Source: an uncultured Rickettsiales bacterium (GTDB lineage Bacteria > Pseudomonadota > Alphaproteobacteria > Rickettsiales > CAYLHV01). From it: DNA of 64,000 bases. The notes under the pieces were generated by a model that ran no database searches, was not told the origin of the DNA, and saw only the letters and a program-made list of their open reading frames with translations. Shown here one piece after another: positions 18,175 through 55,555 of the stretch (its first letter is position 1; each line of letters opens with the position of its first letter). The DNA lies in assembly GCA_964383745.1 (NCBI GenBank), contig CAYLHV010000003.1, forward strand, positions 33,590 to 97,589, in the 5' to 3' direction. Position numbers and translations under genes: made by a program.

Positions 18175-18639
18175 TTAAGAAACGATTCTCCATGAGCCGT
18201 CAACTTCGCGGCAAGCTTTACCATAGGCTTTTTCGGTTTTTCCGCCAATGGTGACAGTTTGGTTATATTCTCGGCAATATTGGTCATTATTCTGGAAGGT
18301 TCTTATTGGTGTGAAAGTGCCAGAATGGCCATTATCTGGATTTTTCCATTGACTGGTTCTGCCTGTTGGGGCGCTTTCAAGTGCATTTTGTGAGTTTCTT
18401 TCAGCATAGGCTCTGTCTGCCTTGTCCATGGAAGCTCCGATTTGATTTCCAATTAGTGAACCTGCGATTGCGCCAATTGCAATTCCAGCCATCTGGCCAG
18501 AACCTTTGCCGACTGTTGACCCGAGAAGCGCTCCGCCAATGCCTCCAAGCACTGTTCCGGCTCCTTGTTTATTGACTCCATTTTCAGCACATGAAGAGAG
18601 AATGGTGACGATTGCTAGTAAAGAAATTAATTTTTTCAT
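18175..18639 (-). CDS. 17-kDa surface antigen family lipoprotein (glycine-zipper domain)
   Basis: Lipobox ILSSC, glycine-zipper GGIGGALLGSTVGKGSGQMAGIAIGAIAGSLIG and a C-terminal YCREY...CRE cysteine pair, as in the rickettsial 17-kDa antigen. Confidence 0.85.
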   Translation of the reverse strand: MKKLISLLAIVTILSSCAENGVNKQGAGTVLGGIGGALLGSTVGKGSGQMAGIAIGAIAGSLIGNQIGASMDKADRAYAERNSQNALESAPTGRTSQWKNPDNGHSGTFTPIRTFQNNDQYCREYNQTVTIGGKTEKAYGKACREVDGSWRIVS

Positions 18640-18759
18640 TTTTTGCTCCTTAGTTTAATGTTGGTTGATGTCAATTATATAGGGTTTTTCCATGATTGCA
18701 ATATAAATCTTTAGATTGGGTAATTCAAGATGCTGGATTTATTAAAGATAAAAAAACTA

Positions 18760-18788
18760 TAGACAATTCATTATTTTTGTAATATGAT
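18760..18788 (+). promoter_or_regulatory. candidate sigma70 promoter TAGACA-17-TATGAT for the first GT2 gene
   Basis: Hexamers read directly. The -35 region is conserved upstream of the second GT2 gene (19942-19947). Confidence 0.4.
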
Positions 18789-18839
18789 GTGTGGTTTGAG
18801 TTTTGTTTTATGTTAAAACTATTATAGTGAGTGTATTGT

Positions 18840-19853
18840 ATGAAGGTTTTTAATAATAAAAGATATATATTATTAATTGCGGTGGTTGTTATTGCAATTC
18901 TTTCGGTGAATAAAAGCTTTAAGAAAAGATTATCTTATTATTGGGGTTCTTATGTTGAAATTGAGCCTTTTAAGATTGAAGATGAGAAGATTAGATTCTG
19001 TATTGTTAGTCCGACATATAATTCTAAGAAAATGACTGTGGAGAGCATTAAATCTGTTTTAAGGCAGAAATATAGTAATTGGCGTTTATATATTACCGAT
19101 GATAAGTCGCCAGATGGGACATATGAATATGTGAGTGATTTTATTAGGAAAGAGAATATTGGTGATAAAGTTAGCATTGTGAAAAATGATGTGAATGTTG
19201 GTTCGATGAGGAATATATATAATAGTATACATAAAAATTGCGCTGATGATGACGTTGTGGTGCAGTTAGACGGTGATGATATGTTATTTGGTAAATATGT
19301 TTTTCATAGATTGTTTAAAGAATATAATGATAATGACATTTGGCTTAGTTTTGGTAGGTATGTTAGTTTGGCGAGTAAATCGATATATGGTGGTGCATTT
19401 CATACAGCGGAAGTTATTAAGAATAATGAATATAGAGCTAATCATATTAGGAGCACTCCAATCAGAGCATTCAGAGCTTGGTTGTTCAAGAAAATTAAAT
19501 TAAAAGATTTTATGGATGATGATGGCGATTTTTATAAATTAACCCAAGATGTAGTGATGTATTCACCTATGTCTGAAATGACTCCGATTGAGAAAATTAA
19601 AATGATTCCGAAAGTTATGTATGTTTATAATGATGTGAGACCGGATAATGATTTTAAAGTTCATAGTTTGACGCAACTTGCAACGCATAGAAAGTTAGTT
19701 TTTAAACCGAGATATTCGAAAATTAAAGATCGGAATGATCCGATTGTTTATATGCCTCCTGTTAAGTTGGTTGCATATGATTTGGCTTGTTATTTGCTAA
19801 TTGATCCTGAATATGTGGATCCGTCTACTAAGGACGCTGCTAAATGTAAATAG
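18840..19853 (+). CDS. family 2 glycosyltransferase, N-terminal membrane anchor (copy a)
   Basis: FCIVSPTYNSKKMTVESIKSVLRQKYSNW.L.ITDDKSPDGT plus a DxD motif (QLDGDDML). The ATG at 18840 (MKVFNNK) is preferred over the GTG at 18831. Confidence 0.8.
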   Translation: MKVFNNKRYILLIAVVVIAILSVNKSFKKRLSYYWGSYVEIEPFKIEDEKIRFCIVSPTYNSKKMTVESIKSVLRQKYSNWRLYITDDKSPDGTYEYVSDFIRKENIGDKVSIVKNDVNVGSMRNIYNSIHKNCADDDVVVQLDGDDMLFGKYVFHRLFKEYNDNDIWLSFGRYVSLASKSIYGGAFHTAEVIKNNEYRANHIRSTPIRAFRAWLFKKIKLKDFMDDDGDFYKLTQDVVMYSPMSEMTPIEKIKMIPKVMYVYNDVRPDNDFKVHSLTQLATHRKLVFKPRYSKIKDRNDPIVYMPPVKLVAYDLACYLLIDPEYVDPSTKDAAKCK

Positions 19854-20020
19854 AGATAAATGCGGATATTGAGTTAGTTTGAGGATTGCTTTATCTATAT
19901 TTTCGTTATAGAAAATTTTATATTAGTAAGAAAAAAACTAGTAGACAATTAATTTATTCTGCGATAAAGTTCTATAAGTTTTTTCCTTTAATTTACGAAC
20001 ACGTATTAGGAGTTGTAAAT

Positions 20021-21076
20021 ATGAATACCATAGCTCGCTGTATAGGCGCATTAAGAAGTAATATAAAAAAATCCATATTACTGGTTATTTTGGCGATCAC
20101 TGTTGTTTTTTTGGTAGAAAATCAGAGCGTTAGAAGAAATTTATCCTATTATTGGGCTCTTTATAAGGAAACTGAGCCTTTTAAGATTGAAGATGAGAAG
20201 ATTAGATTTTGCATTGTTAGTCCGACATATAATTCCAAGAAAATGACTGTGGAGAGCATTAAATCTGTGTTAAGGCAGAAATATAGTAATTGGCATTTAC
20301 ATGTTACCGATGATAAATCACCAGATGGTACATATGAATATGTTAGTGATTTTATTAGGAAAGAGAATATTGGCGATAAAGTTAGCATTGTAAAAAATGA
20401 AGTGAATGTTGGTGCAATGGCGAATATTTATAATAGCATACATAAAAATTGTGCGGATGATGACGTGGTGGTTATGTTAGATGGCGATGATATGTTATTT
20501 GGTAAATATGTTTTTCATAAATTATTTAAAGCATATAATGATAATGATATTTGGCTTAGTTTTGGTAGGTATGTTAATTTATCTCATAAAGGGAAGTCAG
20601 ATGGTTCATTTTATAAACCAGAAGTTATTAGGAAAAATGAGTTTAGAGCAATTCACCATAAGTTTAGTCATCTAAGATCATTTAGAGCATGGTTGTTTAA
20701 AAAGATTAAATTAGAAGATTTAAAAGATCGTGGTGAGTTCTATCGCTTAAGTCACGATATAATAATTTACTCACTTATGTCTGAAATGACGCCAATTGAA
20801 AAAATTAAAATGCTTCCAGCAGTTATGTATGTTTATAATGATGTGAGACCGGATAATGATTTTAAAATTTACAGCTTGACACAACTTACAACACATAGAA
20901 AATTAATTTTCAAACCACGCTATTCGAAGATTAAAGATCGGAATGATCCGGTGGTTTATATGCCTCCTGTTAAGTTGGTTGCATATGATCTTGCTTGTTA
21001 TTTACTTATTGATCCTGAATATGTGGATCCGTCTACTAAAGGTGCATGTATTAGCGCAAGTAGGTGTGGATATTAA
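20021..21076 (+). CDS. family 2 glycosyltransferase, N-terminal membrane anchor (copy b)
   Basis: Paralog of 18840..19853 with the same GT-A motifs (MLDGDDML). The ATG at 20021 is preceded by AGGAG (20008-20012). The ORF-track start at 19886 is an upstream extension. Confidence 0.8.
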   Translation: MNTIARCIGALRSNIKKSILLVILAITVVFLVENQSVRRNLSYYWALYKETEPFKIEDEKIRFCIVSPTYNSKKMTVESIKSVLRQKYSNWHLHVTDDKSPDGTYEYVSDFIRKENIGDKVSIVKNEVNVGAMANIYNSIHKNCADDDVVVMLDGDDMLFGKYVFHKLFKAYNDNDIWLSFGRYVNLSHKGKSDGSFYKPEVIRKNEFRAIHHKFSHLRSFRAWLFKKIKLEDLKDRGEFYRLSHDIIIYSLMSEMTPIEKIKMLPAVMYVYNDVRPDNDFKIYSLTQLTTHRKLIFKPRYSKIKDRNDPVVYMPPVKLVAYDLACYLLIDPEYVDPSTKGACISASRCGY

Positions 21077-21194
21077 GTTAGTTTGAGGCTTTCTGTCTAT
21101 AATAATTGGTTATCAAAAAATTTTGATTCACAGGGCCGTTAAGTTCTAGAGAATAAGAATTTAATTGCCTAGCTTTTTATCTAAAAAAAACCGA

Positions 21195-21223
21195 TTGATT
21201 TTTAGTGGGAATCTTTTTATCAT
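21195..21223 (+). promoter_or_regulatory. candidate sigma70 promoter TTGATT-17-TATCAT for GT10 copy a
   Basis: Read directly. The homologous TTGATT-16-TATCAT is at 22533-22560 upstream of copy b. Confidence 0.4.
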
Positions 21224-21261
21224 ATGAATATGTTTTTTAGTTTATCATACGGGGGTTCGTT

Positions 21262-22362
21262 GTGAGAAAGAGGGGATTAGTTATAGTGTTTTTGCTAATT
21301 GGATTAGTTGGGCTTTCATTATATGGTGCGAATTTGAAAAATTTGACTTCTGATCAAACAAAGAAAACACTAAGGCTTCATGCGATTGGGTTCTGGGATA
21401 ATGAGTATGTGAAATATTTGTTCTATGTAAAAGAATTAGAAAAAAAATATGATATAATATGGTCTTCTTCTAACCCGGATATTGTTTTGACAAGCCAAAA
21501 TTTAGAGGAGGGGAAAGTGAATAGCTACCCGAATGCAATAAAGATTCACTATTCTGGGGAGGTTTTTCGTGGGAATTCTGCTGACCATATTGCCAGCCAT
21601 GATCTTGTGATGGCAACTGAAGATTTTAAATATGATAATTATATAAGATTGCCATATTACCAAGTCCATTATAGCGACAGAATTAATCATAAGAATGATT
21701 CTAGAGGAAAGTGTAATCCAAATAAGAAATATTTTGCATGTTTTTTGGTGAGTAATGGTGGGTGGCATGAGATTTTTGATAATTTAGGCACAGATAAAAA
21801 TTGGGAAAATGTGATTAGGAAATATGAGAAGGAACCTGATGAAGTCATCAGAGTATTTAAAGATTATGAAAAAAGGAATATTGATATTAAAGAGATTTTT
21901 CAGGGGGCGCGAGATAGGAATGATTTGTTTCATGCTCTTTCTTTATATAAATTTGTTGCAAGTGGTGGAAAATATTTGAGGAATATGAAAGAGAGTCCAA
22001 CAGATGCAGAAAAATGGCTTTCTGATTGTAAATTTGTGATTGCATATGAGAATCAATATTATCCGCATTATATTACTGAAAAACCTTTTCAGGCCTGGTT
22101 TTCGGGGGCTGTGCCAATTTATAATGCGCATGGAACAACATTAAGTGACTTCAACAAAAAAGCAACAATTTTTGCAGGGGATTTTGAGTCGCGTGAAAAA
22201 ATGATTGATTATATTAAGCAAGTGGATCAAGATGATCAAAAATATTGTGAGATTTGGAATGAATCAATTTTTACAAAAGATGCAGGGAAAGATTTTGTGG
22301 TGATTGAAAAGAAAGTGAATGATAGAATTGCGGAAATCATTAAAAATAAATTGGGAAAATAA
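21262..22362 (+). CDS. GT10-like glycosyltransferase (alpha-1,3/4-fucosyltransferase family), copy a
   Basis: CFLVSN..., RNDLFHALSLYKFVASGGKYLRN and CKFVIAYENQYYPHYITEKPFQAWFSGAVPIY align with the conserved FucT motifs (CFVVSN, V.GGG..RN, KF.LCFEN..GYVTEK......IPIY). GTG start and an N-terminal TM anchor. Confidence 0.75.
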   Translation: MRKRGLVIVFLLIGLVGLSLYGANLKNLTSDQTKKTLRLHAIGFWDNEYVKYLFYVKELEKKYDIIWSSSNPDIVLTSQNLEEGKVNSYPNAIKIHYSGEVFRGNSADHIASHDLVMATEDFKYDNYIRLPYYQVHYSDRINHKNDSRGKCNPNKKYFACFLVSNGGWHEIFDNLGTDKNWENVIRKYEKEPDEVIRVFKDYEKRNIDIKEIFQGARDRNDLFHALSLYKFVASGGKYLRNMKESPTDAEKWLSDCKFVIAYENQYYPHYITEKPFQAWFSGAVPIYNAHGTTLSDFNKKATIFAGDFESREKMIDYIKQVDQDDQKYCEIWNESIFTKDAGKDFVVIEKKVNDRIAEIIKNKLGK

Positions 22363-22485
22363 ATGGGAATATTCAAATAACTGTGTAAATCTAAAATCAT
22401 TCCATAGGAAAATGGATATCTAATTGAGGAAGAATGATGAGCCAATTTTATATTGGCATATTCCATTTTTTTAAATTAACTAAAG

Positions 22486-22519
22486 CGGTATCAACTTATA
22501 TTGGGTGATGCCGTTTTTT
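22486..22519 (+). terminator. rho-independent terminator after GT10 copy a (cggtatca-N12-tgatgccg + TTTTTT)
   Basis: 8-bp stem with one G-U pair, followed by a T6 run. Confidence 0.5.
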
Positions 22520-22532
22520 ATCTGAAAACTAA

Positions 22533-22560
22533 TTGATTTTTAACTAAAATCTTTTATCAT
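22533..22560 (+). promoter_or_regulatory. candidate sigma70 promoter TTGATT-16-TATCAT for GT10 copy b
   Basis: Homologous to 21195-21223. Confidence 0.4.
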
Positions 22561-22600
22561 ACATGCTGGTGTTTTTGTTTTTCGGTTTATTTTTATTAAT

Positions 22601-23704
22601 ATGAGGAGTTTTGTGAGGAAGAGAGGGTTAGTTATTGCGTTTTTGCTGGTTGGGTTGGTTAGTCTGTCACTGTATAGTTCAAATTTTGTTTCTGATCAGA
22701 AAAAGAAAACGTTGAGGGTTCATGCGACTGGGTTTTGGGACAATGAGCATGCAAAACATTTTTTCTATGTGAAAGAGTTGGAGAGAAAATATGATATTAT
22801 GTGGTCTGCTTTTAATCCAGATATTGTTTTCACAAGCCAACGCTTATTAAAAGGAAGAGAGAAGCTTTACCCGAATGCAATAAAGATTTACTATTCTGGG
22901 GAGATTTTTCGTGGGAATTCTGCTGATCATATTGCCAGTCATGATCTTGTGCTGGCGACTGAGGATTTTAAATATGATAATTATATAAGATTGCCATATT
23001 ATCAAATCCATTATGGTGATAGAATTAATCATAAGAATGATTCTAGAGGAAAGTGTGACCCGAATAAGAAATATTTTGCATGTTTTTTGGTGAGTAATGG
23101 GGGGTGGCATGAGATTTTTGATAATTTGGGCGCAGATAAGAATTGGGAAAATGTGGTTAAGAAATATTCAAAAGAATCTAAGGCAGTTATCAGAATTTTG
23201 AAAGATTATGAAAAAAGGAATATTGACATTAGAGAGGTTTTTCAAGGGGCGCGAGATAGGAATGATTTGTTTCACGCTCTTTCTTTATATAAATTTGTTG
23301 CAAGTGGTGGAAAATATTTGAGGAATATGAAAGAGAGTCCAACAGATGCAGAAAAATGGCTTTCTGATTGTAAATTTGTGATTGCATATGAGAATCAATA
23401 TTATCCGCATTATATTACTGAAAAACCTTTTCAGGCCTGGTTTTCGGGGGCTGTGCCAATTTATAATGCGCATGGAACAACATTAAGTGACTTCAACAAA
23501 AAAGCAACAATTTTTGCAGGGGATTTTGAGTCGCGTGAAAAAATGATTGATTATATTAAGCAAGTGGATCAAGATGATCAAAAATATTGTGAGATTTGGA
23601 ATGAATCAATTTTTACAAAAGATGCAGGGAAAGATTTTGTGGTGATTGAAAAGAAAGTGAATGATAGAATTGCGGAAATCATTAAAAATAAATTGGGAAA
23701 ATAG
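22601..23704 (+). CDS. GT10-like glycosyltransferase (fucosyltransferase family), copy b
   Basis: Paralog of 21262..22362. The C-terminal 142 aa are identical. Confidence 0.75.
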   Translation: MRSFVRKRGLVIAFLLVGLVSLSLYSSNFVSDQKKKTLRVHATGFWDNEHAKHFFYVKELERKYDIMWSAFNPDIVFTSQRLLKGREKLYPNAIKIYYSGEIFRGNSADHIASHDLVLATEDFKYDNYIRLPYYQIHYGDRINHKNDSRGKCDPNKKYFACFLVSNGGWHEIFDNLGADKNWENVVKKYSKESKAVIRILKDYEKRNIDIREVFQGARDRNDLFHALSLYKFVASGGKYLRNMKESPTDAEKWLSDCKFVIAYENQYYPHYITEKPFQAWFSGAVPIYNAHGTTLSDFNKKATIFAGDFESREKMIDYIKQVDQDDQKYCEIWNESIFTKDAGKDFVVIEKKVNDRIAEIIKNKLGK

Positions 23705-23782
23705 ATTTTTATCTTGTGTTTGATTTTGACATTTGAGATGCTGATGGGGTGGAGAATTTAAATTATTGGTGGATTTCTGGAA

Positions 23783-24682
23783 ATGGAAAAAAATGATCTG
23801 ATTAAATTTACAACCTATTTTGCTGTGATCATTTCCTTGGTGATTTTGGGTTTAAAAATTTATGGCTATTTTCAGACTAATTCTTCCAGTATTCTTGCGT
23901 CTCTTTCTGATTCTTTGGCTGATTTTTTAATGTCTTTTGCTAATTTCATTGCAGCGATTTATGCAATGAAACCGCCTGATCATGAACATCGGTTTGGGCA
24001 TGGTAAAGCTGAAGATTTGGCTTCTTTCATGCAATCAATTCTTCTATTGATTGTCAGCATTTTCATTATTTTTAACGCAATTTCAAATATTTACATGAAA
24101 AAAGAAGTTCATGATCATGAAATTGGCGTCTATATTATGCTGATTTCATCAGCTTTGGTGATTTTACTGATTTCAGTGCAGAATTATGCCATTCGTCACA
24201 CAGATTCGAAAATAATTGAACTTGACAAAATGCACTATTTAACAGATTTATCTATGAATTTTTCTGTGATTCTGGCTCTTTTGGGAGGGGGATTTGTTGA
24301 TTTGCCTTTTGCTAAATATCTCGATTCTTTTCTTGCGATTATGATTGGAATATATATTATTTTCTCGGTTAGTAAAATTTTGTTGAATGCTTTTAATAAT
24401 TTGATGGATCGCGAATTTAGTGAAAAAGAGAGGGAGAAAATTGTGGAATTGCTTCGGAATAATGAACATTTAAGAGGATTTCATGATTTGAAAACTAGAG
24501 TTTCTGGAAGAAATTCTTTCGTGCAAGTTCATGTGGTGCTAGATGGAAACATGGTTCTGAAAGATTGTCACATCATCACTGAGCAAATTGAAAAACAAAT
24601 TAGCGCGATTTTTAAAAATTGTGAAGTCTTGATTCATCAAGATCCGGAAAATGCTAATGAAAAAATACAATTCTCAGAATAG
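23783..24682 (+). CDS. cation diffusion facilitator family transporter (FieF/CzcD-like)
   Basis: 299 aa with 6 TM helices, the motif SDSLADF...HEHRFGHGKAEDL and a C-terminal cytoplasmic domain. Confidence 0.9.
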   Translation: MEKNDLIKFTTYFAVIISLVILGLKIYGYFQTNSSSILASLSDSLADFLMSFANFIAAIYAMKPPDHEHRFGHGKAEDLASFMQSILLLIVSIFIIFNAISNIYMKKEVHDHEIGVYIMLISSALVILLISVQNYAIRHTDSKIIELDKMHYLTDLSMNFSVILALLGGGFVDLPFAKYLDSFLAIMIGIYIIFSVSKILLNAFNNLMDREFSEKEREKIVELLRNNEHLRGFHDLKTRVSGRNSFVQVHVVLDGNMVLKDCHIITEQIEKQISAIFKNCEVLIHQDPENANEKIQFSE

Positions 24683-24687
24683 TCCGT

Positions 24688-25365
24688 TCAAGAGAATCTT
24701 TTTCTGATTTTGCTAAGCACTTCTTCGGCAATTTCTGAAATGGGGTTAAAATCTGCTTCCTCAAGGCCAGGCCAAATGGTTTTGCCAATTTCACTATAAA
24801 CCTTCTTCAATCTTAAAAATTCAACATGAAGTGAGCTGTCTTTTGACTCTTGTGCGTAGATTTCTGCGAGAGCTTCCAGAGCGGCTTTGGAGACAGCATA
24901 GGCTCCGTAGAAAGCTGGGCTTGGGAAAACTTCTTCACAAGATGCAAAAATTGCTAAAGATTTTTCTGATTTTTTTAAAAGCAAATCAAAGCTTCTGATG
25001 AGTCTCCAATTTGCAGTTAAATTCACATCCATGATTTTTTGCCAAACTTTAGGAGTGAGATGTGTTAAAGGAGTTAGATTTGTGACAATGGCCGCCATGC
25101 TGATGAAAATGTCAATTTTGCCGAATCTCTCAAAAATTTGGTAACCTAAATTATCAATTTGCTCGAAATTTACTAAATCAACGCAGGCAATTGTGATTTT
25201 TGAGCCATTTTCTCTGGCAAAATCATCAAGCTGTTCTAAATTTTTCTGGTTTTTATCTAAAGCAATTAATTGCACATTTTCAAGAATTAATTTTTTTGAG
25301 AGCTCAAGACCAATGCCTGACGCTGCTCCTGTTAACAAAACCACTTTATTCTCAAGACTTCTCAC
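24688..25365 (-). CDS. SDR family oxidoreductase
   Basis: TGAASGIG cofactor motif and YAVSKAAL (YxxxK). The GTG at 25365 is preferred because the ORF-track start (25413) would overlap the upstream gene by 31 nt. Confidence 0.75.
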   Translation of the reverse strand: MRSLENKVVLLTGAASGIGLELSKKLILENVQLIALDKNQKNLEQLDDFARENGSKITIACVDLVNFEQIDNLGYQIFERFGKIDIFISMAAIVTNLTPLTHLTPKVWQKIMDVNLTANWRLIRSFDLLLKKSEKSLAIFASCEEVFPSPAFYGAYAVSKAALEALAEIYAQESKDSSLHVEFLRLKKVYSEIGKTIWPGLEEADFNPISEIAEEVLSKIRKRFS

Positions 25366-25382
25366 TTTACACCCCACTAAAA

Positions 25383-25901
25383 TTAAATGAATTCGGAGAC
25401 ATAGACGCCCCAAATTTTTGATTTCTCAATCCATCCTTCAATTTTTTTTGACCCAGTTTCTTCCGATGCATCAATTTTAATTAGGCACCAATTTTTTTTA
25501 CATGTTTTTAAAGAACCTCTGACTTCTGACTCAACTTTTGCAACCACGTTACTCGCTGCATGAGGCTTAGTGTAGATTTTTTGGAATTCCTGGCCTTTGA
25601 TTGATTTGACCACAATTCTGCGCTGACCTGAGAGCATGGTTTTATGCATCCAACCTTCATCACCATTATGATCTCTGGTCTTTCGCCATTGTTCAAATTC
25701 AGCAATGATTTCAACTGGCTCCATTGATTTGACATAGACCCAAATGATGGGATATCTGACGCTTGGGCCAGTTCTTAAATTTGCTTCAGATGACCTGATT
25801 GAAGCGAAACGTGGCAGGCTTAATTGCTCTGTTGCAAACAAATTGCAAGATATTATGGATAAAAATAGAAATTTCAGAAGGAATCTAAGCAATTTAGTCA
25901 T
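25383..25901 (-). CDS. SH3-like domain protein (DUF1058-type), secreted
   Basis: Signal peptide MTKLLRFLLKFLFLSIISCNLFA, then LPRFASIRSSEANLRTGPSVRYPIIWVY...GDEGWMH typical of bacterial SH3b proteins. The ATG at 25901 overlaps the kefB stop (ATGACTAA). Confidence 0.7.
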   Translation of the reverse strand: MTKLLRFLLKFLFLSIISCNLFATEQLSLPRFASIRSSEANLRTGPSVRYPIIWVYVKSMEPVEIIAEFEQWRKTRDHNGDEGWMHKTMLSGQRRIVVKSIKGQEFQKIYTKPHAASNVVAKVESEVRGSLKTCKKNWCLIKIDASEETGSKKIEGWIEKSKIWGVYVSEFI

Positions 25902-27726
25902 CTCTCCTTTCTTTATTTTCAGAGAGAGAAATTTCAATGATGTCAACGGGTTTATTAGATGACACAGGATCAGGTTTTTTTGCGTCTTCTTCTTCGTCTT
26001 CTTCTGGCTCTTCTTCTAGGTCATCCTTCGCAAGAATATAGTTGCCAGCGCGGAACTTATTTTTTAACCTACTGACCTCAAATTCGCTGATGCCAATGCT
26101 TTTGAGAACGGCGCCGCCAATTTGCAGCCCTGTTTCATAGGTTTCTGGAACAATTACATCAACTCCTGCTTCTTTGAAAAGCTCAAGGTCACTCAAATCT
26201 TCTGACCTGCTGACAATTGGAATTGACAAATCAGGGTAGAATTTTCTGATGGCTCTTGCAACTTTTTTTGAAGTTACTTCATTTTTCATTGCTAAAATCA
26301 CAGCCTTGCATCTGTCAATGCCGACTGCTCTGAGAGTAACTTGTGTGCTTGCGTCACCAGCATAGATTGGGAAGCCGCTTTTGTGAAGTTCAAATGCTGT
26401 TTCTGGGTTAATGTCAACTGCAACATAGTGAATTTTTTCTGCAGAAAGCAGTCTTGACACCATGATGCCAACCCTGCCAAATCCAACAATGATCACATGA
26501 TTTTCAAGGTCGGCAATGTCTTCATAGATTTTGTCTTGAATTGATTTTCCTTTTTTCTTTCTTTCCTCAATCATATCAGAAATTTTCTTTCCAATTGTTG
26601 CAAGAAGTGGTGTCAGGGCCATTGTCACTGTGATCACTAAAAGCAAAATTTGTCTTGTTCCTTCTTTGAGCAAGCCACTTTGGAAAGCTGAGTCAAAAAT
26701 GATGAAAGCAAGCTCACCACCTTGTGAAAGCAACAAACTTGTTTGAATTGCAGTTCCAAGGCTGAAACGGAAAATGAGGCATAGAATGAAAAGGATTAAA
26801 GCTTTGACAAAAATTAGAGACAAGGTCAAAATGGTCACTATGCCAATTTTCTGCACAATCAAATCAAGCTCAATTGACATTCCAACAGACATGAAAAATA
26901 AACCTAAAAAAAGGCCTTTAAATGGATTAATGCTTTCTTCAGCCTGCACATGAAACTCTGTTTCGGCAACTAAAATTCCTGCCACAAATGCCCCTAAAGC
27001 AAGTGAAAGACCCATATGTTCTGTGATCCATGCGGAACCTAGGGCAATCAAAAGCGTCGCTGCGACGAAAATCTCATTACTTTTAGCGGAATTTGAGGAA
27101 ATGATCATTTTAAAGACAGGTCTAAGAAAAATTCGTCCTGCAATGAAAATTCCAACTAAAGCCACAACAGCATTTAGAACTGCTTTGCCAATTGCTTCCG
27201 TCACATTCACATCACCAGCTAAAATGGGAACCAGAATGATTAATGGGACAATGGCGAAATCTTGCATTAGAAGGGCTGACAAAGAAACTCTGCCAGTTTG
27301 TGTTGATTGCTGTCTTTTTTCAGCGATAACTTGCAAAACAATTGCTGTTGAAGACAAAGCGAGGCTGCTGCCGATGATTATTGATGCGTTTTTTGAAAGA
27401 CCGAAAGATAAACAAATCATTGAGATGACAAAAGCAGTGATCACAACTTGCAAACTGCCAAAGCCAAAAACATGGCTTCTCATTGACTTTAAACGGTCAA
27501 AACTGAGCTCAAGGCCAATTGCAAAAAGCAAGAAAACCACGCCATATTCCCCGATGAGCATTGTGTCGTGAACAGACATGATTTCAAGCCCTCTTGAAGT
27601 GATGAGAGCGCCAGCAACAAAATAGCCCAAAACTGGACTTAAGTTAAGCTTTTTGAAAATTGCCACCACAAAGACAGCTGTCAAAAGCAGAATTAAAACA
27701 TCAGAAAGTATTCCGGTAGTTTCCAT
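25894..27726 (-). CDS. kefB: CPA2 family monovalent cation:proton antiporter with TrkA-N domain (KefB/KefC-like)
   Basis: 610 aa with about 12 TM helices followed by the Rossmann motif IIVGFGRVG. Acidic C-terminus. Confidence 0.9.
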   Translation of the reverse strand: METTGILSDVLILLLTAVFVVAIFKKLNLSPVLGYFVAGALITSRGLEIMSVHDTMLIGEYGVVFLLFAIGLELSFDRLKSMRSHVFGFGSLQVVITAFVISMICLSFGLSKNASIIIGSSLALSSTAIVLQVIAEKRQQSTQTGRVSLSALLMQDFAIVPLIILVPILAGDVNVTEAIGKAVLNAVVALVGIFIAGRIFLRPVFKMIISSNSAKSNEIFVAATLLIALGSAWITEHMGLSLALGAFVAGILVAETEFHVQAEESINPFKGLFLGLFFMSVGMSIELDLIVQKIGIVTILTLSLIFVKALILFILCLIFRFSLGTAIQTSLLLSQGGELAFIIFDSAFQSGLLKEGTRQILLLVITVTMALTPLLATIGKKISDMIEERKKKGKSIQDKIYEDIADLENHVIIVGFGRVGIMVSRLLSAEKIHYVAVDINPETAFELHKSGFPIYAGDASTQVTLRAVGIDRCKAVILAMKNEVTSKKVARAIRKFYPDLSIPIVSRSEDLSDLELFKEAGVDVIVPETYETGLQIGGAVLKSIGISEFEVSRLKNKFRAGNYILAKDDLEEEPEEDEEEDAKKPDPVSSNKPVDIIEISLSENKERRDD

Positions 27727-27861
27727 TGACCTTCATTTAATTGAGATTGACATAAAATATAATTTCGCTACTATAACTTAAATATAGAGCTTTCAACTCA
27801 AAAATTCAAGATAAACTTATAAATTTTCTCTAATTTATTTAACGTAGATGCAGAAATTTCA

Positions 27862-28596
27862 ATGAATGTAGAAAAAAGAATTTTTATCACTGCAGCAAAT
27901 TCAAACTTTGGTGTTTTTTTGTCAGAATATTTTGCCAAGCAAGGGTTTCAGTTGGCTCTTCATTTTCGTGAATCTTCTTCAGAAATCAGGCGTTTGAAAG
28001 AGAAATTTCCGCAAAAGATTGTTTTTTTTCAAAGTGATTTTAATGAAATTTCTGAAGTTGAAAAAATGTGCCATTTGGTGAAAAAAGAATTTGTGGAAAT
28101 TGATGTTTTGATTAATAATGCCGCTTCATTTTGTAATGATTTTCCTGATGGTTTTTCTGAAGAATCTTTTAACTCTAATTTTAACTTGAATTTGAAAGCG
28201 CCAATGTTTGTTTCTTCGTTTTTTCAGAAAAATCTTGCGGCGAGAAATGCAAATATTGTTAATATTCTTGATTATTGTATTTTTAAAATGCCTCAGAAAT
28301 TTACGTCTTATTCACTAAGCAAAATGGCTTTGGCGAATTTTACAAAAATGTCTGCAGTGAATTTTGCACCAAATGTAAGGGTTAATGGCGTCTCTTTCTC
28401 TAATCTTTTGAAAAACGCCCAAGAGAATCATGAGAGATTTGAGAAAAATGCGAGTAATAATCTGCTTGGTCAACAAACTTCTGTGGAAGAAATTCTGGCA
28501 ATCATTCAGCTGATTCTCAACTCACCAACAATGACAGGGCAAATCATTAATGTTGATGGGGGCAAATCTCTCTCTGATTTTCCCTATTATGAGTGA
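27862..28596 (+). CDS. SDR family oxidoreductase with degenerate glycine motif
   Basis: YSLSK (YxxxK) and NNAA motifs are present. The usual TGxxxGIG is replaced by TAANSNFG. Confidence 0.7.
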   Translation: MNVEKRIFITAANSNFGVFLSEYFAKQGFQLALHFRESSSEIRRLKEKFPQKIVFFQSDFNEISEVEKMCHLVKKEFVEIDVLINNAASFCNDFPDGFSEESFNSNFNLNLKAPMFVSSFFQKNLAARNANIVNILDYCIFKMPQKFTSYSLSKMALANFTKMSAVNFAPNVRVNGVSFSNLLKNAQENHERFEKNASNNLLGQQTSVEEILAIIQLILNSPTMTGQIINVDGGKSLSDFPYYE

Positions 28597-28600
28597 GATG

Positions 28601-30133
28601 TTATTCTTCTTTAAATGACAATCTCATTGTGTTCAAAATTGGGTCGAGGAGATATTTCATGAAAGTTCTGCTTCCAACCACAATCAACACACTGGCCGGC
28701 ATGCCGGGATATAGATCTATGTTTTTCAATTTTGGGTTTTCTTCAAATTGGTCTTTGTCAATTTCAATTTTTGCCTTATAAAATGATTTATCTTCCGGAT
28801 TTGCAGCATTTGGGTCAGAAATGATGTCAGCTGAAACATGCACCACCACACCTTTAACAGGAGGCACAAATCTTGATCTATATGCGTTTAAATTTGCAAA
28901 AGCCTCAAGTCCAGGATGAACTAAATCAATGTCTTCTGGTTTAATTCTGGCTTCAATCACGAGCTTGTCATCGGTCGGAATGATTTCCATGATTGCTCCA
29001 TTTGGGGGCACAACACCGCCAATTGTGTGAAAATTCATGTTATTAACAATGCCGCTGATTGGGGATTTAATCTCTGTTCTTTCAAGCAAATCTGATGCTT
29101 CATTCATTTTCTCAGTTGTTTCACTCAAATGGAGCTGTGTTTCTTTTAATTCTTGCTCAACCTTGTCAAGCATCTCATTTCTTAAATGAATCATTTCAAC
29201 TTCAGCTGACGCAATCCTCTGATTCGCTTCAGCAATTTTGGCAACAAAGTCACCAATTCTTCCTTGAAGCTCTGCTTGCGAGCTTTCAAGTTGAAGCAAT
29301 CTTGTTCTTTCAGTGTTGCCGCTTGCAAGTAATTTTCTCATCACTCCAACTTGCTCGGTGATTTTATTTAGCTGAACTCCTGCTGAAAATTTTTGCGCAT
29401 TAATCCCTTCAATCTGTTTGTTAAATTGAATGATTTTACGAGCTGTTATGTCTTTTTTTGCCTGGCTCAGTGCGAGTCTTGCATTAAAAATTCTTCTTTG
29501 TCCTTCAAAAATCTTCTCAATTTCAGGTAAAGTTTTTGCAGCTTCGATGAGCTTTTCTCTGAAAATCAGCTCTGTTGCTTCGTCTCTTTCTGCAATTAAC
29601 CTGTCTTCATTAGCCATTAAAGTGTTGATTCTGGAAAAAAGAATCTCTCTATTTACGCTGGCAGAAGTGTCATTTAATCTCATGACCACTTGTCCTGCAG
29701 CGACTTCGGCTCCTTCTTTCACAAGAATTTCTTTAATGACGCCACCTTCTTTATGTTGAATTGTTTTCTTGTTAGAATCAACCACAATTGTGCCGCCTGC
29801 AATGGAGGCTTGATTTAAAGGAGCAACTGCTCCCCAGATTCCAAAAAAACCGAAACAGATGATCAAGACCCAATTTCCAAACACAATTGGTGCACGTGCT
29901 GTGCTGACAACTTCATCAACAGCTTTGTCTGTTTTTCTGTTTGCCATGAAATTAATGAAGCTGTCAAGCTGGGCAAGGGAAGAATTTGCAAAATTCACAA
30001 TTTTGTTGAACCATTTCTTTTGCGCCAGTTTATTTGTTTTCGGCATGGCTTGCATTTCTTTTTTTTGCATCATGCTTCTTCTAACTTTTTCTACCAATTC
30101 TTCGTTATTCAATTCTGGTTTTTTTTCTGACAT
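28601..30133 (-). CDS. HlyD family type I secretion membrane fusion protein (AprE-like)
   Basis: 510 aa with one N-terminal TM helix, a long coiled-coil and a C-terminal barrel with the PGMPA motif. Immediately downstream of the T1SS ABC gene. Confidence 0.9.
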   Translation of the reverse strand: MSEKKPELNNEELVEKVRRSMMQKKEMQAMPKTNKLAQKKWFNKIVNFANSSLAQLDSFINFMANRKTDKAVDEVVSTARAPIVFGNWVLIICFGFFGIWGAVAPLNQASIAGGTIVVDSNKKTIQHKEGGVIKEILVKEGAEVAAGQVVMRLNDTSASVNREILFSRINTLMANEDRLIAERDEATELIFREKLIEAAKTLPEIEKIFEGQRRIFNARLALSQAKKDITARKIIQFNKQIEGINAQKFSAGVQLNKITEQVGVMRKLLASGNTERTRLLQLESSQAELQGRIGDFVAKIAEANQRIASAEVEMIHLRNEMLDKVEQELKETQLHLSETTEKMNEASDLLERTEIKSPISGIVNNMNFHTIGGVVPPNGAIMEIIPTDDKLVIEARIKPEDIDLVHPGLEAFANLNAYRSRFVPPVKGVVVHVSADIISDPNAANPEDKSFYKAKIEIDKDQFEENPKLKNIDLYPGMPASVLIVVGSRTFMKYLLDPILNTMRLSFKEE

Positions 30134-30145
30134 GTTAACGCTCTT

Positions 30146-31867
30146 CTATTGATTTGTTCCTGATATTCTAGCTATGATTTCTTCGCGACTTCCAAAAGCT
30201 GCAATTGAGCCATCTTGCAAAACTAAGATTTTGTCAACGCTTGACAAAATTGAAGTTCGATGAGAAATGATTACTGTTGTGATTTTCTTTTCTTTAGCTT
30301 TCAAAATTGCTTGCACTAAAGCAGCTTCACCAGTTTCGTCTAAATTCGCATTTGGCTCATCAAGAACAACAAATCTTGGATTTCCAAAAAATGCCCTTGC
30401 AAGGCCAATTCTTTGTTTTTGTCCACCAGAAAGAGAGGCGCCTGCCACGCCAATGTCTGTGTCATAGCCATTTGGTAGGCGCAGAATCATGTCATGCGCT
30501 CCTGCAATTTGGGCTGCTTCAACAATGTCTTCCGATGAAGCATCTTGGTTAAGTCTTGCTATATTTTCTTTAATTGTGCCGCTGAAAAGTTCAATTGCTT
30601 GTGGCAGATAGCCAACATATTGGCCAAAATTTTCTCTATTCCAGGAATAAATCTCGGCACCATCAAGCCTTATGCTTCCTGCAGATGGCTTCCAAACGCC
30701 CATCATCAGTTTTGCCATGGAAGATTTTCCTGCTGCGCTTGGTCCAATGATGGCTAGCACATCACCTGCTTCCAGTCCAAAACTCACGCCTTTCACAACA
30801 TGTTTAGGGTTTGTTTGTTCTGCTTGTGTTCTTGGTGGGTGAGCAAAAAACACATTTTCAAAGGTTAAAATTCCTTGAGGAACTGGTAATTTCATGTCTT
30901 GGCTTCTGACAGGTGTGTGGTCAAAGCTTTTTTTCAATCTTTCAAAAGCCACTTTGGAGTCTGTCACGCTTTTCCAAACAGCAATTGCTTGGTCAAAAGG
31001 AGCCAAAGCTCTGCCAACGATGATTGAGCTGGCAATCATGCCCCCGACGGTCATTTCGTTTTTTAAAGTTAGATAGGCCCCAATGCCGGTGACAGCCATT
31101 TGCAAACTCACACGAATGAATTTAGAAATGTTGGAAATCACGCCATTGCGATAGCTTGCGTGGGACTGAAGTTTCATGGATTGTTCGCTGGCTTTATACC
31201 AGTTTTTAACTAAATGTTTCATCATTCCCATTGCTTCAATTGCTTCTGCGTTTCTGTTGGCAATCTCTGCTTGATTCATGCTTTTAATGTTTGACTCAGT
31301 TGCTTTTGACAGTTGATTATTTGTTGAATAGGCATTAAAAACTGCAAAACAAAAAATGATGATTCCACCAAAAATTGTGAGCCAGCCTAAATATGGGTGA
31401 ATCAGGAAAACGACCAGCACATAGATGATTGACCAGGGTGCGTCAAACAGGGTGTTGATTCCAGAGCTTGTTAGAAAGCTTTTAACAGTTGCAAGGTCTC
31501 TGAGTGATTGGCTTCCACCAATTGAAGGTCTCACTGCGGCATTTGCAACTGAATTTGCAAAAAGAATTGGTGTCATTCTTGAATGTAGCCATTCTCCAAT
31601 TTTAATTAGAACAAAGGCCCTCACCACTTGCAGTAAATGCAGGACGATGTAGACGGCAATCATGACTAAGGAAAGCATTAGCAAAGTTTCCAAGCTTCGG
31701 CTTGACAAAACCCTGTCAAGAACTTGGAGGGAGTAGAGGGGTGTGATTAAATTAAGCACATTAACTGCAAAAGCAAACATAAAAGTGATGATGAATGCTT
31801 GTTTACATTTATTCAATGCCTCTGTCAGAGGGTCTATTTTCTTTTTAACTTCTTCTAAATCTTTCAT
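30146..31867 (-). CDS. type I secretion system permease/ATPase (PrtD/AprD family, no C39 domain)
   Basis: 573 aa with an N-terminal 6-TM domain, Walker A GPSAAGKSS, signature LSGGQKQR and Walker B VVLDEP. Confidence 0.9.
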   Translation of the reverse strand: MKDLEEVKKKIDPLTEALNKCKQAFIITFMFAFAVNVLNLITPLYSLQVLDRVLSSRSLETLLMLSLVMIAVYIVLHLLQVVRAFVLIKIGEWLHSRMTPILFANSVANAAVRPSIGGSQSLRDLATVKSFLTSSGINTLFDAPWSIIYVLVVFLIHPYLGWLTIFGGIIIFCFAVFNAYSTNNQLSKATESNIKSMNQAEIANRNAEAIEAMGMMKHLVKNWYKASEQSMKLQSHASYRNGVISNISKFIRVSLQMAVTGIGAYLTLKNEMTVGGMIASSIIVGRALAPFDQAIAVWKSVTDSKVAFERLKKSFDHTPVRSQDMKLPVPQGILTFENVFFAHPPRTQAEQTNPKHVVKGVSFGLEAGDVLAIIGPSAAGKSSMAKLMMGVWKPSAGSIRLDGAEIYSWNRENFGQYVGYLPQAIELFSGTIKENIARLNQDASSEDIVEAAQIAGAHDMILRLPNGYDTDIGVAGASLSGGQKQRIGLARAFFGNPRFVVLDEPNANLDETGEAALVQAILKAKEKKITTVIISHRTSILSSVDKILVLQDGSIAAFGSREEIIARISGTNQ

Positions 31868-32095
31868 CCTTTTTAAACCTTTTAATAAACAAGTCTGCTT
31901 TGAGATTTTTATAGCTTATGATGCGCAATCCAATTAATTATTTTAATAATAATATATCTTTAAGGGCGTTTTATAGTGTGAATATTGCTAAAAGTGGTAA
32001 AATTGACACAGTCTTTTGATTTAACTTGATTCTAGCCCCATTTGATCAATCTAATATAAAATGGTTCAATTTTCAAGAGGTTTTTTCTCGAAGGC

Positions 32096-32551
32096 TTAAT
32101 CTGATTTTAAATTTTTAATTGAGCTTATGACGATTGGAGCTAGTTGAAAAACATTCCATGGGCTCACAATGAAGCTTGCGAGTCGCTGTTTTTGCTCTTC
32201 AAAAAAAGAAAAGATGCTGTTTGTCGGATTGTTTTTTTGTCTTGCAGAGTCTTTGGAATATATTGCTGCAAAAAATAAATCATAATTTTTTTCTTCTAGA
32301 GAAGCTGACCTTTGAGTTCTTTCGATGAATTCTGGATCATTGGTGAAAGATTCGTATAAATTATTTGCATAAAACTCTTCATGATTTTGATTTTCATGCA
32401 TTTTTTCAAAATGAGCTAACATTGCGGCAAGTGCAGAAATTTTATCTTTTTTGATAAATGATCCACATTTTTTCTGAAGTTCTTCGCCTATTAAGAAGGA
32501 CTTGTGTTCAAGCTGATTTTCGTCTAAAAAGTCTAAAGTCATAAAGGTCAC
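32096..32551 (-). CDS. hypothetical protein (151 aa), upstream of the T1SS genes on the same strand
   Basis: ORF only. No motif recognised. Confidence 0.4.
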   Translation of the reverse strand: MTFMTLDFLDENQLEHKSFLIGEELQKKCGSFIKKDKISALAAMLAHFEKMHENQNHEEFYANNLYESFTNDPEFIERTQRSASLEEKNYDLFFAAIYSKDSARQKNNPTNSIFSFFEEQKQRLASFIVSPWNVFQLAPIVISSIKNLKSD

Positions 32552-32798
32552 CTTTCTACTCTTAGTTAATGCCTTATTTAATATATTACTAGGAAAAAGT
32601 TACTAAATTATTAATGAAGCTGCAATTTGTGATATATTTTTTAGACTATCGAATCTTGGAAATTCGAGAGTTTGAAAAAATAATTTGAAAATTCTACTAG
32701 TATTTTACATTTTTTTATTATATAAATAAATCTAACTTAAATTAGATTATGCTAAGTGTGTGTTTTTTAATAATATTTATTTAGGTCGGGTAAAAATA

Positions 32799-34025
32799 AT
32801 GAAATTATGGAAAAAAGTTGGAATTGGTCTAGTTTCAGGCATAGTCCTTGGTCTAATTATCAAAGAACAAGCGAATCACATTAAATTCATTGGTGACATT
32901 TTCATACATCTGCTTAAAATGATTGTTGTTCCTCTCGTGTTTTTTTCACTTGTCTCGGGAATCACGAATGTCAGCGACTCAAGCACGCTTGGGCGAATTG
33001 GCGTTAAATCATGCATAGCATTCATCAGCACCACAGCTTTTGCCATCATCATTGGCATCACAACTGCCACCATTTTGGAGCCAGGTAAGGGTGTTGTCAT
33101 TAATTTTAGTAATAACGCAAATTCTTCATCAGTGAAAACAATCGACTTCATGGAGTTAATCACTGATATTGTTCCTGGAAACGCAATTGCAGCAATGGCT
33201 AATGGAAACATGCTTCAAGTTGTTTTCTTTGCAATTTTTACTGGCCTCACTCTGAATTCCATGGGTAATGAAGGAAAGAAAATTGTTGGCTACGTGAATC
33301 TTTTCACTAAAATGGTTTTCAAAATGATTGGAATCATCGTTTCTTTCTCTCCATATGGTGCTTTTGCCCTTGCAGCTTGGGTGGTTGGGACGCAAGGAAT
33401 TGAAGTTCTGCAATCTCTTGCAAAATTGTTAGTGTCAGTGGCTGTTGCAATGTCTGCTCAATATATCATTTTTGGTTTGTTTATTTTAGTTGTCGCAAGA
33501 GTCAGCCCAATTCCGTTTTATAAGAAAAGTTTTGAATATCAACTGCTTGCATTCTCAACAAGCAGCTCAAAAGCTACACTTGCAACAACAATGAGAATTT
33601 GTAAAGAGAAACTTGGCGTTTCTGAAAGTAGCACATCTTTCATTCTTCCTCTTGGTGCGTCCATTAACATGGACGGAATGGCCATATATCTTGGAATGTG
33701 TGCAATTTTCTTTGCTCAAGTGACGGGAACGGTTTTGCAGCCACATGAATATGCCGTTATCATTTTTACAGCAACAATTGGCTCAATTGGCGCAGCTGGT
33801 GTTCCAAGTGGCTCAATTGTGATGCTTCCTGTCATTCTTTCCTCAGTTGGTTTGCCGATTGAAGGTGTGGCATTAATTGCTGGAATTGACAGAATACTTG
33901 ACATGTTGAGAACAACAATTAACATCACTGGTGATGCCACTGTGACATTATTGATTGACAGCACTGAAGGTACATTTGATAAAAAAATATATTATTCTGA
34001 CAATGATAATAATTCAGATCTCTAA
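32799..34025 (+). CDS. dicarboxylate/amino acid:cation symporter (DAACS, GltP/DctA family)
   Basis: About 408 aa, multi-TM, with family-typical segments (SSSKATLATTM, ASINMDGMAIY, GVPSGSIVML, DRILDMLRTTINITGD). The ATG at 32799 (MKLWKKVG) is preferred over the GTG at 32760. Confidence 0.9.
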   Translation: MKLWKKVGIGLVSGIVLGLIIKEQANHIKFIGDIFIHLLKMIVVPLVFFSLVSGITNVSDSSTLGRIGVKSCIAFISTTAFAIIIGITTATILEPGKGVVINFSNNANSSSVKTIDFMELITDIVPGNAIAAMANGNMLQVVFFAIFTGLTLNSMGNEGKKIVGYVNLFTKMVFKMIGIIVSFSPYGAFALAAWVVGTQGIEVLQSLAKLLVSVAVAMSAQYIIFGLFILVVARVSPIPFYKKSFEYQLLAFSTSSSKATLATTMRICKEKLGVSESSTSFILPLGASINMDGMAIYLGMCAIFFAQVTGTVLQPHEYAVIIFTATIGSIGAAGVPSGSIVMLPVILSSVGLPIEGVALIAGIDRILDMLRTTINITGDATVTLLIDSTEGTFDKKIYYSDNDNNSDL

Positions 34026-34044
34026 AACATTTAAGAGCAAAATT

Positions 34045-35013: not shown

Positions 35014-35038
35014 ATAATTTTTTTACAAAGGTTCTAAA

Positions 35039-35473
35039 ATGTATAATCACATAATTTTTCCAGTTGATGTTGAAGATAAATATTCCACAAAAGAAGCATT
35101 TCCTTCCGTCATAAAAATTGCAAAAGCATTTAACGCAAAACTCACAATCATGACTGTCATTCCGGATTATGGCACCTCAATGATGAGGGAATATTTTCCT
35201 AAAGGTTGGATGAAAGATTTAACAAGTAAGGCGAAAATTGAATTAAACAAAACGGTTGCGAAATATGTGCCTGCAGATTTGGTTGTTGATCAAATTGTTC
35301 AAACAGGAGCAATTTATGAATCTATCATTCAAACCTCAACGGAAGTTAATGCTGATTTGATCATCATGCCAGCAAATAGAACAGAATTGAGGGAATATTT
35401 GTTGGGACCAAACACGGCGAAAGTGGCTCGTCATGCTCAAATCTCTGTGTTAATTTTAAGAGAATATGAATAA
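35039..35473 (+). CDS. universal stress protein family
   Basis: 144 aa with a Usp fold pattern (IIFPVD...DLIIMPA......LLGPNTAKVARHAQISVLIL). Confidence 0.8.
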   Translation: MYNHIIFPVDVEDKYSTKEAFPSVIKIAKAFNAKLTIMTVIPDYGTSMMREYFPKGWMKDLTSKAKIELNKTVAKYVPADLVVDQIVQTGAIYESIIQTSTEVNADLIIMPANRTELREYLLGPNTAKVARHAQISVLILREYE

Positions 35474-36332: not shown

Positions 36333-36333
36333 A

Positions 36334-37971: not shown

Positions 37972-37994
37972 TTTAAGTCATTAGAGGTTTTTAG

Positions 37995-38444: not shown

Positions 38445-38451
38445 TTTGAAT

Positions 38452-55552: not shown

Positions 55553-55555
55553 TTT

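Follow-up and report, generated by a model that had tools for sequence, protein, structure and literature searches.

We examined two adjacent glycosyltransferase family 10 (GT10) genes in an uncultured bacterium and the stretch of perfect identity that they share at their 3' ends. The pair lies in a 64,000-nucleotide (nt) stretch of DNA, here called the window, which spans positions 33,590-97,589 of the forward strand of contig CAYLHV010000003.1 (assembly GCA_964383745.1). The source organism is a low-GC, flagellated, ankyrin-rich uncultured Rickettsiales-like bacterium. Copy 1 occupies 21262..22362 on the + strand and encodes 366 amino acids (aa), with a GTG start and a TAA stop; copy 2, at 22601..23704 on the same strand, encodes 367 aa and ends in TAG. 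Behind the ATG of copy 2 at 22601 comes AGGAG and, after a gap of 4 nt, a GTG at 22613 which corresponds by homology to the GTG start of copy 1; translation of copy 2 may begin at this GTG instead.

Both genes are intact and are predicted to encode bacterial-type GT-B fucosyltransferases with a membrane anchor. Each translation matches PF00852 (Glyco_transf_10) at 58.2 bits (cutoff 23.9, E = 1.1e-15). Copy 2 also exceeds the cutoff of PF18025, the bacterial FucT_N family (30.5 bits, cutoff 27.2), and copy 1 falls slightly under it at 25.8 bits. The best PDB sequence matches found with phmmer were the H. pylori alpha-1,3-fucosyltransferase (FucT) entries 2nzw and 5zoi (3.5e-15, residues 34-344), with human FUT9 next in line. 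For copy 2, a 69-sequence alignment yielded an AlphaFold model with a predicted local distance difference test score (pLDDT) of 91.3 and a predicted template-modelling score (pTM) of 0.84. The model has the predicted two-Rossmann GT-B fold, and its nearest solved structures are GT10 enzymes: in a Foldseek search against the PDB, ranks 1-18 were all GT10, with H. pylori FucT first (2nzx, 6.5e-20, TM score 0.64-0.67) and human FUT9, mango FucT13 and Arabidopsis FUT11 after it.

Residues expected of such an enzyme are retained. Across the 69 sequences, in copy 2 numbering, R220, N265, E274 and K275 are invariant, and E101 and Y271 are at least 90% conserved. Alignment to 2nzw places YSGE on YTGE, DRN on IRN, and YENQYYPHYITEK on FENTQGYGYVTEK, the last of these at the ENxxxxxYxTEK positions. 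In H. pylori FucT, Glu95 is reported (2007 structure paper) to be the general base, and Arg195, Asn240, Tyr246, Glu249 and Lys250 to bind guanosine diphosphate (GDP)-fucose. An earlier interpretation made from the DNA letters without database searches, which we call the sequence-only reading, had assigned both genes to GT10. The PF00852 and 2nzw matches, the confidence of the model and the all-GT10 top Foldseek matches bear this out, the motifs it quoted occur in both translations, and GT10 membership is as firm as sequence analysis allows. Its eukaryote-leaning view of the family does not fit these proteins, which are of bacterial type (FucT_N, nearest structure from H. pylori) and not recent eukaryotic imports. 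We considered a eukaryotic origin of the pair and rejected it, as the sole eukaryotic match in a word-indexed search had E = 6.7e-4 and the nearest structures are bacterial. The most likely activity of both copies is fucose transfer from GDP-fucose to a glycan of the cell surface, probably lipopolysaccharide or another polysaccharide.

Two regions of the proteins lie outside the catalytic core. The first is an N-terminal hydrophobic helix (copy 2 residues 4-28, 22610..22684, + strand), which is helical by DSSP in the model and reaches a Kyte-Doolittle maximum of 2.06; a corresponding hydrophobic segment is present in 61 of the 83 proteins scanned. In one close GT10 homologue, P0003, the segment ends in a lipobox-like LIAC at residues 13-16, an observation that makes one ask to which side of the membrane this subfamily exposes its catalytic domain. 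The second region is a lineage-specific insertion of about 35 aa (copy 2 residues ~173-207, 23117..23221, + strand; copy 1 equivalent ~21775-21879). It follows the first strand of the C-terminal domain, ahead of the donor-binding Arg, and is helical in the model (pLDDT 63-83). Its columns are occupied in 0-6% of 67 aligned homologues, none of which carries the insertion. The insertion is also a hotspot of differences between the copies and the part least conserved between them, with a ratio of nonsynonymous to synonymous divergence (omega) of 0.32. Omega between copy 1 and copy 2 is 0.18 over the 5' 221 codons and 0.05-0.32 by segment, indicating that both genes are under purifying selection.

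The surroundings of the two genes are diverged upstream and unrelated downstream. A promoter-like TTGATT-N17-TATCAT lies before copy 1 (21195..21223, + strand) and a TTGATT-N16-TATCAT before copy 2 (22533..22560, + strand); both are putative consensus matches. They overlap a repeat (D12, 21187-21217 against 22525-22555) that is 77% identical, and the promoter-like element is conserved before both copies. Over the wider upstream regions (21159-21260 against 22500-22600), identity is 0.58-0.65. The spacer between the genes (22363..22600, + strand) begins with ~140 nt that are not homologous to what follows copy 2, and its final ~100 nt form the diverged region ahead of copy 2. Downstream of both stop codons the sequences are unrelated (sliding identity 0.30-0.37).

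Within the genes, divergence stops abruptly. As assembled, 21934-22361 equals 23276-23703 letter for letter over 428 nt, bounded by mismatches at 21933/23275 and 22362/23704. The sequence-only reading had reported this identity and the differing TAA and TAG stops, and both hold in the window; it had placed the end of the tract before the stop codon, whereas the tract extends two bases into that codon, whose third base is the first right-hand mismatch. It had also put the 5' parts at about 80% identity. These parts are indeed diverged, but 99 of 663 aligned nt in the 5' coding part differ, which amounts to 85% identity overall, with a range of 62 to 95% in 60-nt windows. Chance does not account for the tract: were the 99 differences scattered over 1089 sites, an uninterrupted run of 426 nt or more would arise with P <= 2e-16.

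We then measured synonymous divergence (dS) between the copies with the Nei-Gojobori method along the codon alignment, by which omega was also obtained. dS is 1.00 in codons 1-88, 0.26 at 21535-21774, 0.52 at 21775-21864 in the insertion, 0.29 at 21865-21933 and 0 in the tract. As assembled, the tract shows a dS of 0 over 80 synonymous sites (P = 2e-10). We infer from this pattern that the 3' parts were homogenised by recombination (gene conversion) between the copies. The layers of dS, which appear to be of different ages, together with the lack of any synonymous change in the tract, point to repeated conversion, and they argue against a recent duplication whose 5' part diverged fast. The duplication itself is old, as dS reaches ~1 in the 5' part. 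The sequence-only reading had proposed that the paralogs underwent gene conversion, and a dS of 0 in the tract against 0.26-1.0 elsewhere supports this.

Identity at the 3' end could in principle be kept by selection on the nucleotide sequence, through an embedded RNA, a regulatory element or an antisense gene. Short antisense open reading frames (ORFs) of 62 aa do occur in both tracts, but such ORFs are expected by chance in AT-rich DNA, and Rfam gave no match in the tract. This explanation, to which we attach next to no credence, also leaves unexplained why the boundary coincides with the end of homology, and it sits poorly with the read data described below, in which nine bases of the tract are altered at high frequency.

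The tract as assembled was compared with read-level data in the form of Logan unitigs, an independent de Bruijn assembly, from two metagenome runs that hold this genome (X1 and X2). Genome depth is low, with single-copy sequence at ~11x in X1. In that run the copy-specific upstream unitigs have depths of 9.5x and 15.5x and the downstream unitigs 11x and 11.1x, compared with 17x and 22.9x for the shared segments. A 662-nt unitig of X1 (22332-22993) spans the end of copy 1, the spacer and the divergent 5' part of copy 2. The tandem duplication is real, as copy-specific flanks stand at ~1x and shared segments at ~2x. That the whole duplication is an artefact, one gene written twice or the alleles of two strains concatenated, is therefore very improbable: the metagenome assembly has low coverage (~11x) and one error inside the tract is likely, but the 662-nt unitig joins the end of copy 1 to the 5' part of copy 2, the four copy-specific flanks have single depth, and tandem GT10 pairs are also found on related contigs from other studies. 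We regard this explanation as effectively refuted.

The perfection of the tract is another matter. In both X1 and X2 the unitigs form a bubble inside it, at 22131-22328. Branch A is the window sequence; branch B differs from it at nine sites (22161, 22191, 22218, 22227, 22230, 22254, 22278, 22287 and 22298). Eight of the nine are third codon positions, and the amino-acid changes are K339N and V346A. Over the 138 nt concerned (22161..22298 on the + strand, equal to 23503-23640 in copy 2) the branches are 93.5% identical, and dS between them is 0.34, matching the neighbouring older segments. Depths of A and B are 12.6x and 8.6x in X1, where their sum of 21.2x is roughly double that of single-copy sequence; in X2 they are 2.59x and 5.8x. 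The unitigs of both runs contain no variants in the adjacent 20 kb (24000-43999), and those of X1 contain no others in 18500-24500. Metagenome assemblers are known to merge bubbles. As the branches sum to ~2x, differ mostly at third positions with a dS of 0.34, and lie between variant-free flanks, one copy most likely carries A and the other B, the assembler having threaded the better-covered branch A through both. The 138-nt stretch, identical in the window, is then a probable assembly collapse, and about a third of the 428-nt "perfect" identity is probably an assembly shortcut.

If the two copies differ there, as is likely, the secure identical runs are just 227 nt and 63 nt long. The first (21934..22160, + strand, equal to 23276-23502) is a single shared unitig of 17x in X1 and encodes SLYKFVASGGKYLRN...YENQYYPHYITEK, the donor-binding core. 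The second (22299..22361, + strand, equal to 23641-23703) is a shared unitig of 22.9x in X1. On the copy 2 side, the tract runs from 23276..23703 on the + strand, of which 23503-23640 is the two-haplotype part. X2 has low-depth variants, at 3-4x, inside the 227-nt run at positions 21999, 22000 and 22104. The 227-nt run contains no change at 44 synonymous sites, compared with a local proportion of synonymous differences (pS) of 0.24 (P = 5e-6; for the clean run, P <= 5e-9), and for this reason the conversion inference survives either reading of the bubble. The sequence-only reading had itself named an assembly-level artefact among the findings that would count against it. The duplication withstood that check through its unitig flanks and depths, while the "perfect" 428 nt, in view of the bubble, probably did not.

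A distant relative offers a second instance. The locus that we label L083 (contig JAWVHA010004241.1 of GCA_040384245.1, a Rickettsiales-like metagenome-assembled genome) contains a GT10 pair (P0013/P0006) at 10001-12149 whose 5' parts have ~55% nucleotide identity and which shares a 448-nt identical 3' tract in the assembly. The unitigs of run X5 carry it as a single 481-nt piece at 12.1x, between flanks of 5.4-6.3x and free of any bubble. The 3' identity of the L083 pair is genuine.

Taken together, we think it likely that the window holds old GT10 paralogs patched by repeated conversion, that the latest tract is probably not 428 nt long, and that two haplotypes collapsed in the assembly. RecA-type recombination between the copies would homogenise the part that encodes the donor-binding Rossmann domain, and on the right, conversion would stop where homology ends, at the stop codon. 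Repeated patching within the genome would leave the layers of dS, from 1.0 through 0.26, 0.52 and 0.29 to 0. In GT-B enzymes the N-terminal half usually carries the acceptor contacts. The N-terminal half and the insertion stay different between the copies, so the two enzymes would share a donor module and probably differ in acceptor preference or regiospecificity. They may fucosylate a surface glycan jointly with the neighbouring GT2 enzymes.

Several observations weigh against this reading or parts of it. The unitigs break at the shared 227-nt and 63-nt segments, so that haplotype B can be assigned to neither copy. The A:B ratio is 1.47 in X1 and 0.45 in X2, although sampling noise at such depths covers both values, and a population polymorphism (A/A cells plus A/B or B/B cells) fits the depths too. 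The paralogs are sisters in N-terminal, middle and C-terminal trees, and there is no orthologous pair with which incongruence between 5' and 3' parts could be assessed. On the enzymatic side, neither copy matched a model in NCBIfam that would name these proteins, and the donor, acceptor, linkage and cellular location of the enzymes are all inferred. Both flanks of the N-terminal helix are positively charged in most homologues, with the N flank more positive in 34 of 61, so that the charges favour neither orientation.

The polymorphism deserves to be spelled out. Under it, both copies are truly haplotype A, the 428-nt tract is genuine, and B comes from other cells of the population, in which conversion either did not take place or ran in the opposite direction. 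Such a polymorphism would be restricted to this locus, like that of futA/futB within a single H. pylori host. A mixture accounts equally for A at 12.6x and B at 8.6x against 11x in X1, and for the excess of B over A in X2. Communities of H. pylori vary in their fut genes and not in single-copy genes (PMC2583950), and L083 shows that a truly identical tract of >448 nt is possible in this gene family. Yet two subpopulations would have to be identical over at least 26 kb of flanks in both samples and still differ at nine sites here, while the arrangement of A and B in one genome needs no extra assumption. The polymorphism is a possibility we take seriously and judge unlikely.

The reverse history would also yield a sharp mosaic, since this is expected under either scenario. 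In it, the entire gene was recently duplicated in tandem, after which DNA from a related strain or species replaced the 5' two-thirds of one copy, with no conversion at the 3' end. Within the window, GC is lowest in the glycosyltransferase island (31-33%), as is often the case in exchangeable glycan loci. The 5' part is layered (dS 1.0, 0.26, 0.52 and 0.29), however, so several events would be needed; the upstream promoter regions are diverged too, at 77% identity; and the 3'-identical pattern recurs in L083. The closest proteins outside the window, from metagenomes and metagenome-assembled genomes (MAGs), are 41-48% identical, and no protein among 5.8 billion is closer than 44-48% to either copy. 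The N-terminal domains are each other's nearest relatives, at 80% against at most 38% to anything else. We find import of the 5' part quite improbable, and retain conversion between old paralogs as our preferred explanation.

An exhaustive search returned 36 clusters at E <= 1e-30 and 2,960 at E <= 1e-3, and the protein cluster to which the window enzymes belong contains just the two assembled GT10 forms. Several relatives are on Rickettsiales-like contigs, and adjacent pairs recur among them. At L001 two adjacent GT10 genes stand beside virB8-11/virD4 and ankyrin genes, the gene order at L084 is GT2-GT10-GT10, and at L083 valS, an epimerase gene and a GT2 gene accompany GT10-GT10. The L084 and L001 pairs are 63% and 53% identical and contain no identical 3' tract. 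The window, L083 and L084 pairs are each sisters in the N-terminal, middle and C-terminal trees, which fits lineage-specific duplication and long-running concerted evolution alike. We rejected a conserved GT2-GT10-GT10 cassette or operon: the same families adjoin in L083, L084 and L088, but their GT2 genes are not orthologous to those of the window. On a further Rickettsiales-like contig, from a metagenome and 75 kb long (L087, 1-20969), a GT10 gene lies beside the rvh-like type IV secretion genes virB3, virB4 and two virB6/TrbL. After it come a DUF268 gene, a gene of the GT11 family (the alpha-1,2-fucosyltransferase family), a GT2 gene and four TcdA/TcdB-like Gly_transf_sug genes, the last arranged as two divergent pairs.

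In the window, the GT10 genes belong to an island of four glycosyltransferase genes in the order GT2, GT2, GT10, GT10, all on the + strand. The first GT2 gene (18831..19853, + strand) matches PF00535 at 4.7e-16 and the second (19886..21076, + strand) at 8.4e-18; the true start of the second is probably the ATG near 20021 (MNTIARC...). Both have N-terminal hydrophobic helices. They form another tandem pair directly upstream of the GT10 pair, with a nucleotide identity that is a mosaic of 65-97%, a longest identical run of 46 nt, and direct repeats D1/D2 between the copies that are 85-91% identical. The X2 variants in the second GT2 gene at 20209, 20212 and 20236 are the letters of the first, and reflect either a conversion patch or, at 4x depth, a unitig path switch or popped bubble. 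Housekeeping genes flank the island, which has fabI and a glycine-zipper lipoprotein gene as its left neighbours and a cation diffusion facilitator (CDF) cation-efflux gene on its right. Over 19000-24000 the island's GC of 31-33% is the window minimum (34-42% elsewhere), and GC skew is strongly positive at +0.32 to +0.34.

The rest of the window holds valS, lon, flagellar genes (fliK-like, flgD, flgE, fliW, flgK and flgI; 39569-44126 and 50870-57035), a type I secretion pair of the PrtD/HlyD type (28601-31867), a Fic-domain protein (11734-12903) and at least five ankyrin-repeat proteins (ORFs at 1835-2449, 13179-14315, 44347-46143, 58905-59810 and 60263-62350). Five ankyrin-repeat ORFs and a Fic protein within 64 kb are typical of host-associated bacteria with secreted effectors. 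At 25985-26017, loose-ended unitigs of X1 and X2 stack on a short stretch rich in GAA/TCT, which codes for the acidic tail of a KefB/KefC-like protein; the pile-up looks like a low-complexity repeat common to other genomes in the samples. Profile annotation of the 64-kb window identified no gmd or fcl among its genes. The window DNA turns up solely in metagenome runs. In a species-representative genome set its ValS is at most 59% identical to any match, with uncultured Rickettsiales MAGs best and Rickettsiaceae and Wolbachia next. With these matches and the gene content of the window as evidence, the label of intracellular alphaproteobacterium given in the sequence-only reading is reasonable for an uncultured Rickettsiales-like organism.

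The main practical lesson of the locus is that, in low-coverage MAGs, "perfect" identity between paralogs can be partly made by the assembler; conversion tracts should therefore be compared with the read graph before any limits or ages are assigned to them. Of minor interest is the recurrence, in two distant lineages, of an identical tract confined to the 3' end. More broadly, bacterial-type GT10 genes, often with GT2 neighbours and on one contig a GT11 neighbour, are present in several uncultured Rickettsiales-like genomes. If the enzymes do fucosylate the cell surface, they would be candidate makers of glycans for host interaction in a group about whose surface chemistry very little is known. 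One could go further and propose that domain-restricted concerted evolution recurs, under selection, in the tandem GT10 pairs of environmental protist-associated Rickettsiales, preserving a shared GDP-fucose donor module while the N-terminal acceptor module and the insertion diversify, so that two membrane-anchored enzymes would build or vary a fucosylated surface glycan used towards the eukaryotic host. Host cytosolic GDP-fucose might feed such a system, since no gmd or fcl was seen near any of these loci. We consider this wider proposal doubtful.

Homogenisation of copies by recombination is ordinary for duplicated sugar-transferase genes, and the closest described counterparts of the window pair are H. 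pylori FutA and FutB (PDB 2NZW/2NZX/2NZY and 5ZOI). These share with it the CAZy GT10 family and the GT-B fold, are its best sequence and structure match, and have the general-base Glu and the donor-binding R and N..Y..EK residues that are conserved in the window pair. Sequence identity is nonetheless ~20%, and the window enzymes carry the 35-aa lineage-specific insertion, unlike H. pylori FucT. Anchoring differs as well. The window enzymes have an N-terminal hydrophobic helix, in contrast to the C-terminal heptad repeats and amphipathic helices of H. pylori, and in the copy 2 model the protein ends after a single C-terminal helix (346-365). The window genes sit side by side; futA and futB occupy separate loci. 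Between 18700 and 23900 there is no C run of 6 or more (the longest homopolymers are A8, at 21183 and 21440, and G6), and heptad (21-nt) repeats were not found, Tandem Repeats Finder (TRF) giving only one 6-nt and one 13-nt micro-repeat. Lacking heptad repeats and a poly-C tract, the pair shows no sign of slipped-strand phase variation. With no such repeats and no gmd or fcl in the window, the host-glycan mimicry or variable surface fucosylation suggested in the sequence-only reading is not supported. Its appeal to futA and futB as a precedent for exchange between fut paralogs was sound: the two fut paralogs of one H. pylori genome exchange sequence by homologous recombination (PMC2583950).

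Closer to the organism, an alpha-(1,3)-fucosyltransferase orthologous group, RiOG_866, has been reported in Rickettsia, full-length solely in R. bellii and decaying in other species (PMC2635572, Gillespie et al. 2008). It resembles the window genes in being annotated as GT10 and in belonging to an obligate intracellular member of the Rickettsiales, and differs in having been reported as a single gene. Our literature search returned no paper that ties GT10 pairs to Rickettsiales beyond this 2008 phylogenomics note. A Midichloria preprint was set aside as a precedent because it concerns an O-fucosyltransferase-like effector of a different family. The remark in the sequence-only reading that this was not known to have been described for this type of organism was nevertheless too strong, given the 2008 orthologous group and the homologues and tandem pairs on several Rickettsiales-like MAG contigs; NCBI names some of the MAG homologues alpha-1,3-fucosyltransferase.

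Two further systems are comparable. In mucosal pathogens, for example at Neisseria lgt loci, adjacent paralogous glycosyltransferase genes have mosaic identity through recombination between copies; those genes belong to other GT families and contain phase-variable homopolymer tracts that are absent in the window pair. The L083 pair is of the same subfamily, with 54% identity in the C-terminal domain, and is likewise tandem, co-oriented and beside GT2 genes, with a divergent 5' part, an identical 3' tract and an N-terminal hydrophobic helix in both proteins. It differs in that its 5' parts are far more diverged (~55%), its second gene call overlaps the end of the first gene, its neighbours include UDP-N-acetylglucosamine (UDP-GlcNAc) 2-epimerase-like and Methyltransf_21 genes, and its GT2 genes, which match those of the window over short stretches at 24-32% identity, are not their orthologues. 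The window locus thus adds a clean case of mosaic, recombining glycosyltransferase paralogs, with an independent replicate in a distant relative.

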